From assembly GCA_041688145.1 (NCBI GenBank), contig JBDNIV010000038.1, positions 1 to 64,000 of the forward strand: a stretch of 64,000 nt of DNA, in the 5' to 3' direction. Origin of the DNA: Chlamydiia bacterium (GTDB taxonomy: Bacteria > Chlamydiota > Chlamydiia > Chlamydiales > JAAKFQ01). A program made the position numbers and the translations under genes. Shown one piece after another: positions 29,013 to 29,764 of this stretch (positions are counted from its first letter, which is position 1; each line of letters starts with the position of its first letter). The notes beneath the pieces were generated by a model. The model ran no database searches. It was not told the DNA's origin and was given only the letters and a program-made list of their open reading frames with translations.

Positions 29013-29675
29013 TTATAGTTCTTGTTTAAATTTTTTAGGTGTGAGCAGGTAAACGCCTAGATCATAAGTTTTTTTCACAGGGAAAAAAGCGATACGGAAG
29101 GGAAGTGCTACGATGAAAGCAAGCGCGGTGCCAAGGCCATAGGCTATGCGCGCACTTAAGCTGCTGGGTTCTTTAGGCAGAGTTACCTCTAGCGTTACAT
29201 CATCTAAAGGATTAGGCGCTATGCCCATGTCTTGATAGATAATGCCTTCTTGAGCAGGCGCCTCTTCTTCTGGTTTTAGTTCTCTGCTGTGAACAACGTT
29301 TGTTGCAGGCTCTGTTTCAAGCTGAATCAGTCCAGCAAGTCCTAGAAGAGGTTGTGGGCGCTGCACTTGTGCTGTATTTACTGTTGGCAGGGGCAGCGGT
29401 TGTTCTCTAGGGAAGGCTGTTTGTAAAAATAAAGCGGCAAGCTCTCGATGAGACATTTGAACTTGGACAGCAGGGTTCCCTGAATGCAGTCTGCGCGCTT
29501 GTGGCATGCGAGCAGTAGCAAGGCGTGTTGTTGCCTGGGGAGTAGGCATAGCTTGTGTTAGTAGAGGCCTAGCTAGGGTAGTAGCCCCTTGGCGTGTGCT
29601 TTGGTACAGCGCTCTAGTCCCAAATTGAGCCCCAGTTCTTGCTAAGGGAGATAATCTTTGTAGGTTTGCTGCCAT
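29013..29675 (-). CDS. Orphan protein with mitochondrial-presequence-like N-terminus and C-terminal TM helix
   Basis: AAGGAG RBS; first 77 aa contain 10 Arg and no Asp/Glu and include ARRLHS; IAYGLGTALAFIVALPF TM segment. Confidence 0.8.
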   Translation of the reverse strand: MAANLQRLSPLARTGAQFGTRALYQSTRQGATTLARPLLTQAMPTPQATTRLATARMPQARRLHSGNPAVQVQMSHRELAALFLQTAFPREQPLPLPTVNTAQVQRPQPLLGLAGLIQLETEPATNVVHSRELKPEEEAPAQEGIIYQDMGIAPNPLDDVTLEVTLPKEPSSLSARIAYGLGTALAFIVALPFRIAFFPVKKTYDLGVYLLTPKKFKQEL

Positions 29676-29735
29676 TTTAAGGCTCCTTATTATGTTTATT
29701 GGTTTTTATATATCTTTATTGTTAAGATATTGCTA

Positions 29736-29764
29736 ATTATAGTTTTAATTTACTTAAATGTCAA
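29736..29764 (-). promoter_or_regulatory. Consensus sigma66/sigma70 promoter for the 29675-26294 operon
   Basis: Minus strand reads TTGACA-N17-TATAAT exactly. Confidence 0.9.

Follow-up and report, generated by a model that had tools for sequence, protein, structure and literature searches.

An arginine-only, presequence-like leader on a lineage-specific chlamydial protein, a candidate type III effector addressed to host mitochondria

The window, by which we mean the whole stretch of 64,000 nucleotides analysed here, belongs to contig C9 of an assembly of 1,275,035 bases in 51 contigs (92% complete). Gene 1 (29013..29675, minus strand) opens with ATG and encodes a protein of 220 aa, P0001, which forms a family of three with the homologues P0002 and P0003. 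On the same strand, an AAGGAG ribosome-binding site (29683..29688) lies 7 nt upstream of the ATG and a predicted sigma-70/66-type promoter, an exact TTGACA-N17-TATAAT (29736..29764), has its -10 box ending 60 nt upstream of it; both signals had been reported in the preliminary description and were found again in the sequence. Gene 1 had also been described there as the first gene of an operon, and it does head a promoter-led run of three genes on the minus strand: gene 2 (27527..28966; P0006, 479 aa) follows after 46 nt, gene 3 (26294..27481; 395 aa) after a further 45 nt, and the run ends at a GC-rich hairpin between A and T runs (26252..26284), read from the sequence as a two-way, terminator-like element.

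By hydropathy, the product of gene 2 combines hydrophobic hairpins resembling those of Incs with a coiled segment rich in Ala, while that of gene 3 is lineage-specific and has paired hydrophobic helices. Both pass a two-helix hairpin screen, which is a hydropathy screen rather than a topology predictor and is passed by 40 of the 368 genes that have no match in G001, the only other genus of the family among the genomes compared (671 of 1039 genes match, with a median identity of 46%). Gene 2 also gave weak feature matches to type III effectors (0.78-0.79), to be taken as leads only. Pattern scans with genes 2 and 3 matched nothing but the genome that carries them (1 of 201 and 1 of 41, respectively). 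A P-x-x-x-TY motif common to genes 1 and 2, partly deleted in P0008, was set aside.

The promoter of gene 1 is the sole perfect match to TTGACA-17-TATAAT across the 1.275-Mb assembly and the only 12/12 site among 1039 upstream regions. Since shuffles gave an expectation of 0.15 such sites over all upstream regions, compared with 3.5e-4 for the gene 1 region alone, the signal lies in the position of this promoter rather than in its existence. Two exact promoters are present in G001, neither of which leads to a gene resembling gene 1.

A contig from run X1, possibly the source sample, covers positions 28001-30020 (promoter, gene 1 and the start of gene 2) with zero differing letters, and shorter contigs from X2, X4 and X6 agree with the window over the parts that they cover. 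On the identity of the X1 contig and the homologue alignment described below, a frameshift or assembly artefact behind gene 1 was rejected. The stretch is partly present in six runs from 5 studies, comprising lake, freshwater and salt-lake metagenomes, and no RNA dataset is listed as containing it.

Regarding the organism, its 16S gene shows one mismatch to a chlamydial primer; moreover, the genome carries an Hc1-type histone-like gene, four matches to TLC nucleotide transporters (ATP/ADP translocase) and an SctV of the type III system scoring above the family cut-off, with SctU, CopN and a CesT-type chaperone beside it. On these markers the source is an environmental chlamydia. TatC was not found in the genome (92% complete), and a mitochondrial-carrier gene gave no match there, the control query likewise matching nowhere; a transketolase scan assigned the genome to no named family. 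Lys is used more than Arg (7.4% and 4.4% of residues, respectively).

Several neighbours in the window deserve mention by themselves. The gene at 31979-32659 (+), 2.3 kb from gene 1, encodes a long histone-like protein whose N-terminal part is of the Hc1 type and precedes many Lys/Arg/Ala/Thr repeats. Directly after the 5S rRNA gene, two tandem genes at 24240-26201 (+) encode products with a signal peptide and an aromatic end that resemble outer-membrane beta-barrels, with a single weak OmpA-like match. A chloramphenicol phosphotransferase-like protein (PF07931) is encoded at 7592-8188 (-), and 46035-47315 (+) encodes an AAA ATPase of 426 aa that has a single module, lacks a protease domain and carries a hydrophobic segment at its N-terminus. 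The top matches of this ATPase, Cdc48/p97 and FtsH, all fall under the family cut-offs; its architecture is reminiscent of membrane-anchored extractases such as Msp1/ATAD1.

The first Asp/Glu of P0001 is residue 78. Our recount of the 77 residues before it upheld the 10 Arg and the lack of acidic residues described previously, and added that Lys is absent too; Ala, Leu, Ser, Thr and Gln amount to 58%. Given the genome composition, the chance of 77 residues without Asp/Glu is 8e-5 to 2e-4 and that of ten out of ten basic residues being Arg is ~5e-5, both being single-gene figures that carry no correction for the 1039 genes. When the 1039 called genes are ordered by the position of the first acidic residue gene 1 ranks fifth, behind four genes whose products look like hydrophobic membrane proteins. 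Composition and helical moment delimit a presequence-like leader at residues 1-62 (29490..29675, minus strand; 9 Arg, 0 Lys, 0 Asp/Glu). Mitochondrial presequences are described as 20-60 aa long, Arg-rich, poor in acidic residues and amphipathic (PMC7723863, in excerpt); the 62-residue leader is at the upper edge of that range, the candidate leaders of the three homologues measuring 55, 61 and 62 aa.

N-termini were scored with a heuristic of our own, which takes the best N-terminal prefix under general presequence frequencies against the genome background and has no positive control. On this scale P0001 reaches 32.2 and ranks first of 1039 genes, with the runner-up at 17.8, and the top value among 6141 internal segments of the genome is 23.9. 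P0002 and P0003 score 25.6 and 26.2, respectively. The best value among 1101 ORFs in 120 stretches of G001 is 22.6, the top two ORFs having no ribosome-binding site, and for the other 367 genes without a G001 match, likely effectors included, the 95th percentile is 8.6.

The best 18-mer of the leader has a helical moment within the top 1.3% of the N-termini of the genome. Amphipathicity tested against shuffles of each leader is borderline (p 0.057 for P0001, 0.089 for P0002 and 0.032 for P0003), and the placing of Arg on one helix face gave p 0.0002 in P0003, 0.17-0.20 in P0001 and 0.5-0.7 in P0002. The preference for Arg over Lys in the leader versus the rest of the protein yielded Fisher p values of 0.017, 0.005 and 0.012 in the three homologues, which are not independent of each other. 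Ser makes up 3-7% of the leaders and just 2 Arg fall within the first 20 residues. The Tom20-binding pattern is hydrophobic-x-x-hydrophobic-hydrophobic; a strict version of it, with Ala left out of the hydrophobic set, occurs in P0003 but nowhere in the first 45 residues of P0001 or P0002, and the pattern is not known to be universal in genuine presequences. The idea of a eukaryote-style presequence, put forward in the preliminary description, is supported in part. The outlier score, the Arg-only leaders, the invariant QARRL, the type III export gate, the lack of a TatC match and the lack of a homologue in the named free-living genomes searched speak for it; the Tom20 pattern missing in two of three members and the low Ser content speak against it.

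Other addresses were also considered for this N-terminus. P0001 has no Sec-type hydrophobic leader and departs from the four-Arg rule that applies to the first 12 residues in plants; a Tat substrate was rejected, there being no hydrophobic region after R61-R62 and no TatC found in the genome.

Arg-rich starts occur in other genes too. Inside a block of the window otherwise syntenic with G001 sit two genes for lineage-specific coiled-coil proteins of 316 and 1254 aa (34691-35641 and 35659-39423, both on the minus strand), the former starting with 69 residues that include 11 Arg and a single Lys; a relationship between this start and the gene 1 leader was discarded, the likeness not being significant (probability 1%). 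Further orphans with Arg-rich, acid-poor starts are found at L094:877-4000 (G000 C37:21376-24502) and L095:2201-3142 (C9:66200-67144), and Pfam gave no match for the three orphans of this kind that were scanned. At L098:947-2686 (G000 C26:18443-20185), a glycoside hydrolase family 1 domain is preceded by an extension of 160 residues whose start is rich in Ser, Ala and Arg, the product being possibly a secreted enzyme.

Gene 1 had been called an orphan, a description that in its strict form does not hold, since two homologues, both metagenomic, were found among 5.8 billion + 1.84 billion proteins: P0002 with 62% identity and P0003 with 41-43%. By region, identity to P0002 and P0003 is 77% and 38% at residues 1-64, 44% and 26% at 65-160, and 83% and 70% at 161-214. 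Before the motif described below each of the three carries 8-10 Arg, in total 27 Arg, no Lys and one acidic residue, and Arg instead of Lys is used even at leader columns where a single homologue is basic. A metagenome scan returned one locus only (L002, 1 of 589), identical at residues 1-29. Gene 1 has no homologue in 400 other genomes of the order, the sister genus included, and pattern searches for relatives found none in genome contigs (0 of 48 stretches) or viral contigs (0 of 59). A homologue with the same N-terminus in free-living bacteria had been named beforehand as one finding that would speak against the mitochondrial reading; none was seen in any named free-living genome searched, the two homologues carrying no taxon label.

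Within its own genome, paralogues were detected for neither the leader nor the linker nor the membrane block. Pfam gave 0 matches for the three proteins and NCBIfam a sub-threshold one only, to the LPFR motif small protein (NF040918), which was rejected (13.7 and 14.8 bits over 14 residues, for a cut-off of 40 bits and a family of ~35 aa). Protein and structure-database searches revealed no homology to any eukaryotic protein; sequence searches of the PDB gave one chance-level match each, which were dismissed, and P0004, a TPR repeat protein, was dropped as a family member, its match being repeat-driven. For gene 2 exactly two homologues were found, and the contigs that carry them measure 8350 and 6086 bases, the sizes recorded for the contigs of P0002 and P0003, from which it appears that the linkage of genes 1 and 2 is conserved. 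Judged by these alignments, gene 1 founds a new three-member protein family and is a real conserved feature.

The leader ends in the word QARRLHSG (residues 59-66; 29478..29501, minus strand), a candidate site for the mitochondrial processing peptidase (MPP) at R61-R62|L63 with an R-10 (Oct1/MIP) pattern. QARRL is invariant in all three homologues although the preceding segment varies in length, and five of the six alignment columns at residues 59-64 are invariant, versus 6 of the 28 columns that precede them and 4 of the 46 that follow. The cleavage motifs given in excerpts of PMC3578813 and PMC8847149 are R-x|x, R-x-F/Y/L|A/S and R-x|F/L/I-x-x-T/S/G; P0001 and P0002 match R-10 (R-x|L-x-x-G) and P0003 matches R-3 (R-x-Y|A) at the same aligned site. 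The R-10 pattern is loose, being carried at residues 20-80 by 122 of 1039 proteins of the genome, and a tighter RR-type word by 13 of 1039. The first acidic residue falls after QARRL in P0001 and P0002, and P0003 has one earlier Glu. In the human mitochondrial table of PMC13672106, limited to the first 400 letters per sequence, RRLH occurs at least seven times, four of them within the first 70 residues. MitoFates predicts there an MPP site at the same R-R|L-H word of MRPL55, with Oct1 trimming, and places the cut elsewhere than RRLH in MRPL52 and STARD7 (PMC13672106, in part).

The leader is followed by a linker (residues 63-172; 29160..29489, minus strand) that is rich in Pro, Gln and Glu, poorly conserved and without a confidently predicted fold; its length is 102-120 aa in the three homologues. 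Residues 161-214 (29034..29195, minus strand) form the best-conserved block, with 34 of 54 positions invariant. It comprises a moderately hydrophobic helix (173-191), in which small residues recur at intervals of four, and after it LPFRIA and a stretch that is both amphipathic and charged; the helix contains no Pro, and R194, K201, K202 and D205 after it are all invariant. This is the one hydrophobic segment of P0001 (Kyte-Doolittle 19-mer 1.69 at 173-191, peak 1.86 at 180), and P0003 has a Lys within it. With a single hydrophobic peak instead of two helices separated by a loop under 30 aa, gene 1 was rejected as an Inc protein in the hydropathy screen. The acidic middle, single C-terminal helix and Lys-rich tail of the preliminary description all exist in P0001, where residues 78-170 hold 14 D/E and 5 K/R and residues 196-220 hold 5 K/R, but only the helix extends to the family: the linkers of the homologues have a net charge of +1, the acidic middle being limited to P0001, and 36-48 residues follow the conserved block (tails across the family, 9-48), so that the basic tail is specific to P0001 and, not being conserved, leaves a tail-anchor reading unsupported. 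AlphaFold models are of low confidence (pLDDT 47 for gene 1 and 36 for gene 2), and in the ESM Atlas P0001 gave no feature match, with TM under 0.36.

Taken together, these features make mitochondrial addressing of P0001 in some form probable, and the protein works most likely in the manner of known mitochondria-targeted effectors. The specific reading that we prefer, as a serious possibility somewhat short of probable, is that gene 1 encodes a type III effector imported through TOM and TIM23, cut by MPP after R62 and anchored in the mitochondrial inner membrane. It would be an abundant, non-enzymatic protein mimicking a nuclear-encoded precursor of that membrane. Promoter, short gaps and terminator suggest that it would be strongly transcribed together with the two Inc-like genes; it would then be exported N-terminus first by the type III system, whose machine is partly present and which we infer to be the likely route because a Sec leader is lacking, TatC was not found and a type III system exists. 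Going by the leader features, host TOM and TIM23 would take up the Arg-only, putatively amphipathic segment, and the conserved motif points to MPP as cutting at R61-R62|L63, with possibly one or eight further residues removed. Helix 173-191 and the charges after it may then stop transfer, giving a 158-aa, N-in protein made of a loose matrix tail plus the conserved helix-and-amphipathic segment. A segment that stops transfer at TIM23 is hydrophobic, free of Pro and succeeded by charges (PMC2171449, PMC11452304, both in excerpt), and helix 173-191 would suit this role because it lacks Pro and precedes the four invariant charged residues.

Since the conserved positions gather in the membrane block and a catalytic domain was not seen, the most likely mode of action would be that the mature product packs against itself or a host inner-membrane complex, and, speculatively, mitochondria would stay usable for an ATP-importing parasite; the combination of a loose tail and a membrane block with small residues every fourth position likewise lets us expect binding rather than catalysis. 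A counterpoint comes from the leader itself: residues 1-64, with 77% identity to P0002 against 44% for the linker, are more conserved than would be expected of a discarded signal.

That high conservation would be natural in an ordinary type III effector or inclusion protein whose basic leader combines a secretion or chaperone signal with a segment binding lipid or host protein, the presequence likeness being incidental. The operon shared with Inc-like genes and the effector-like features of gene 2, weak as they are, agree with this, as does the failure of 17 among the 22 signals predicted in C. trachomatis (bioRxiv 10.1101/2022.08.30.505961, in excerpt). However, it leaves unexplained the strict Arg-over-Lys choice and the invariant RR-L word lying where acidic residues become tolerated, and the other genes without a G001 match score far lower than gene 1; we regard it as unlikely, though not strongly so. 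P0001 could otherwise act as a tether whose C-terminal hydrophobic block remains in the inclusion membrane, next to the Inc-like proteins encoded by genes 2 and 3, and whose leader and unfolded linker thread TOM/TIM23, a reading we hold to be rather improbable. The same low standing applies to its mechanistic form, in which a permanently stalled import intermediate lets the host import motor pull mitochondria onto the vacuole while genes 2 and 3 supply the inclusion-side scaffold. A linker that keeps its length while its sequence drifts, the lack of a folded domain in the low-confidence model and a sole perfect promoter, suited to a structural protein, would all fit a tether, as would the hairpins of genes 2 and 3 (criterion of PMC3048545, in excerpt), the existence of CT529, CT618 and CT642 as predicted Incs with mitochondrial signals (bioRxiv 10.1101/2022.08.30.505961) and the recruitment of mitochondria through TOM70 by Toxoplasma MAF1b (PMC7999873, in excerpt). 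Against it, gene 1 shows one hydrophobic peak and no Inc hairpin, a weak anchor might be pulled out by the import motor, and loss of the TOM40 pore left mitochondrial association of Toxoplasma unreduced, according to the excerpt of PMC7999873. Among the papers returned by searches of an open-access library, no title or abstract opening describes a presequence-based tether or a cleavable-presequence effector of an environmental chlamydia.

The address itself might differ, being the plastid of an algal host, both organelles or, without cleavage, the mitochondrial outer membrane. P0001 begins with Met-Ala and has few Arg close to its N-terminus, both being traits of plastid-type signals (PMC7723863), its departure from the plant four-Arg rule points the same way, a dinoflagellate-infecting chlamydia is on record (PMC11317633, in excerpt) and the helix is moderately hydrophobic with basic flanks; set against this are the low Ser, unlike transit peptides (PMC7723863), a conserved word that fits MPP patterns, and tails of 9-48 residues past the conserved block, unlike a conserved tail anchor. 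We give little credence to these destinations. It seems very improbable, finally, that P0001 never leaves the bacterium and is an inner-membrane protein with a basic cytoplasmic arm, for example one binding DNA or lipid during development: its single hydrophobic helix would need no export and a histone-like gene lies nearby, but the basic proteins of this genome rely heavily on Lys, the gene is absent from 400 other genomes of the order, unlike housekeeping envelope genes, and neither a Sec-type leader nor TatC was found.

The inner-membrane effector that we favour has a possible parallel in the same phylum. In G001, an unrelated ankyrin-patatin protein (P0009; L123:4853-7252, minus strand) has a start of 49 aa with 6 Arg, 1 Lys and no Asp/Glu, followed by a short hydrophobic helix. 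Of 201 genomes of the phylum, 21 have relatives of it, and 5 of 15 loci, inspected by eye with the first Met as start, have acid-poor, basic, presequence-like leaders (L226, L229, L233 and L236 besides P0009); others have Ser-rich or Sec-like starts, as if the address had been swapped between lineages. These leaders raise the prior for chlamydial presequence mimicry, which may be recurrent in environmental chlamydiae, and lower the uniqueness of gene 1. The latter is nevertheless a small, sharply testable candidate, with its long leader, conserved peptidase-type site, minimal membrane body and the strongest-looking promoter of the genome. If imported, it would extend cleaved-presequence effectors to environmental chlamydiae and bring a new protein family to the inner membrane; were the tether true instead, it would represent a new way of building a symbiont-organelle contact.

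Several chlamydiae draw host mitochondria to their vacuole. The preliminary description had invoked this habit, which stands for Waddlia, where only a candidate factor is named (PMC6925127, in excerpt), but is not known for the source lineage. Chlamydial Incs resemble gene 1 in being lineage-specific, hydrophobic, clustered with hairpin proteins and, as is likely for gene 1, type III substrates, and differ in requiring the two-helix hairpin that gene 1 lacks (PMC3048545). MAF1b parallels the tether reading as a vacuole protein that holds mitochondria through host import receptors, whereas it belongs to a eukaryotic parasite, is folded and uses internal signals and TOM70, no cleavable N-terminal presequence being described in the excerpt of PMC7999873. 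With nuclear-encoded TIM23 stop-transfer precursors (PMC11452304, PMC2171449), P0001 would share, as read from its sequence, the presequence, MPP site, single helix with charges and N-in topology; unlike them, its gene is bacterial, with its own ribosome-binding site and promoter.

Ats-1 of Anaplasma phagocytophilum is imported into mitochondria and cleaved (PMC2824752, in excerpt). It is a 48 kDa type IV substrate of a Rickettsiales pathogen with a tested function, whereas P0001 is small, predicted to be membrane-anchored and encoded in a chlamydial genome with a type III system; protein searches gave P0001 no named homologue, neither Ats-1 nor CT529/CT618. A further comparison is with C. trachomatis, where 5 of 22 predicted mitochondrial signals worked, three of them on type III substrates, and where in CT529, CT618 and CT642 one N-terminus serves as both type III and mitochondrial signal (bioRxiv 10.1101/2022.08.30.505961). 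As in our reading of P0001, the N-termini of these three and of CT132 and CT647 target mitochondria, and the three type III substrates have hydrophobic segments; their signals are 8-37 aa long and accompany bilobed Inc domains, whereas the P0001 family combines a leader of 55-62 aa with an MPP-type word and one hydrophobic peak. The locus also illustrates that one N-terminus could possibly carry a signal for bacterial secretion together with one for import into an organelle.
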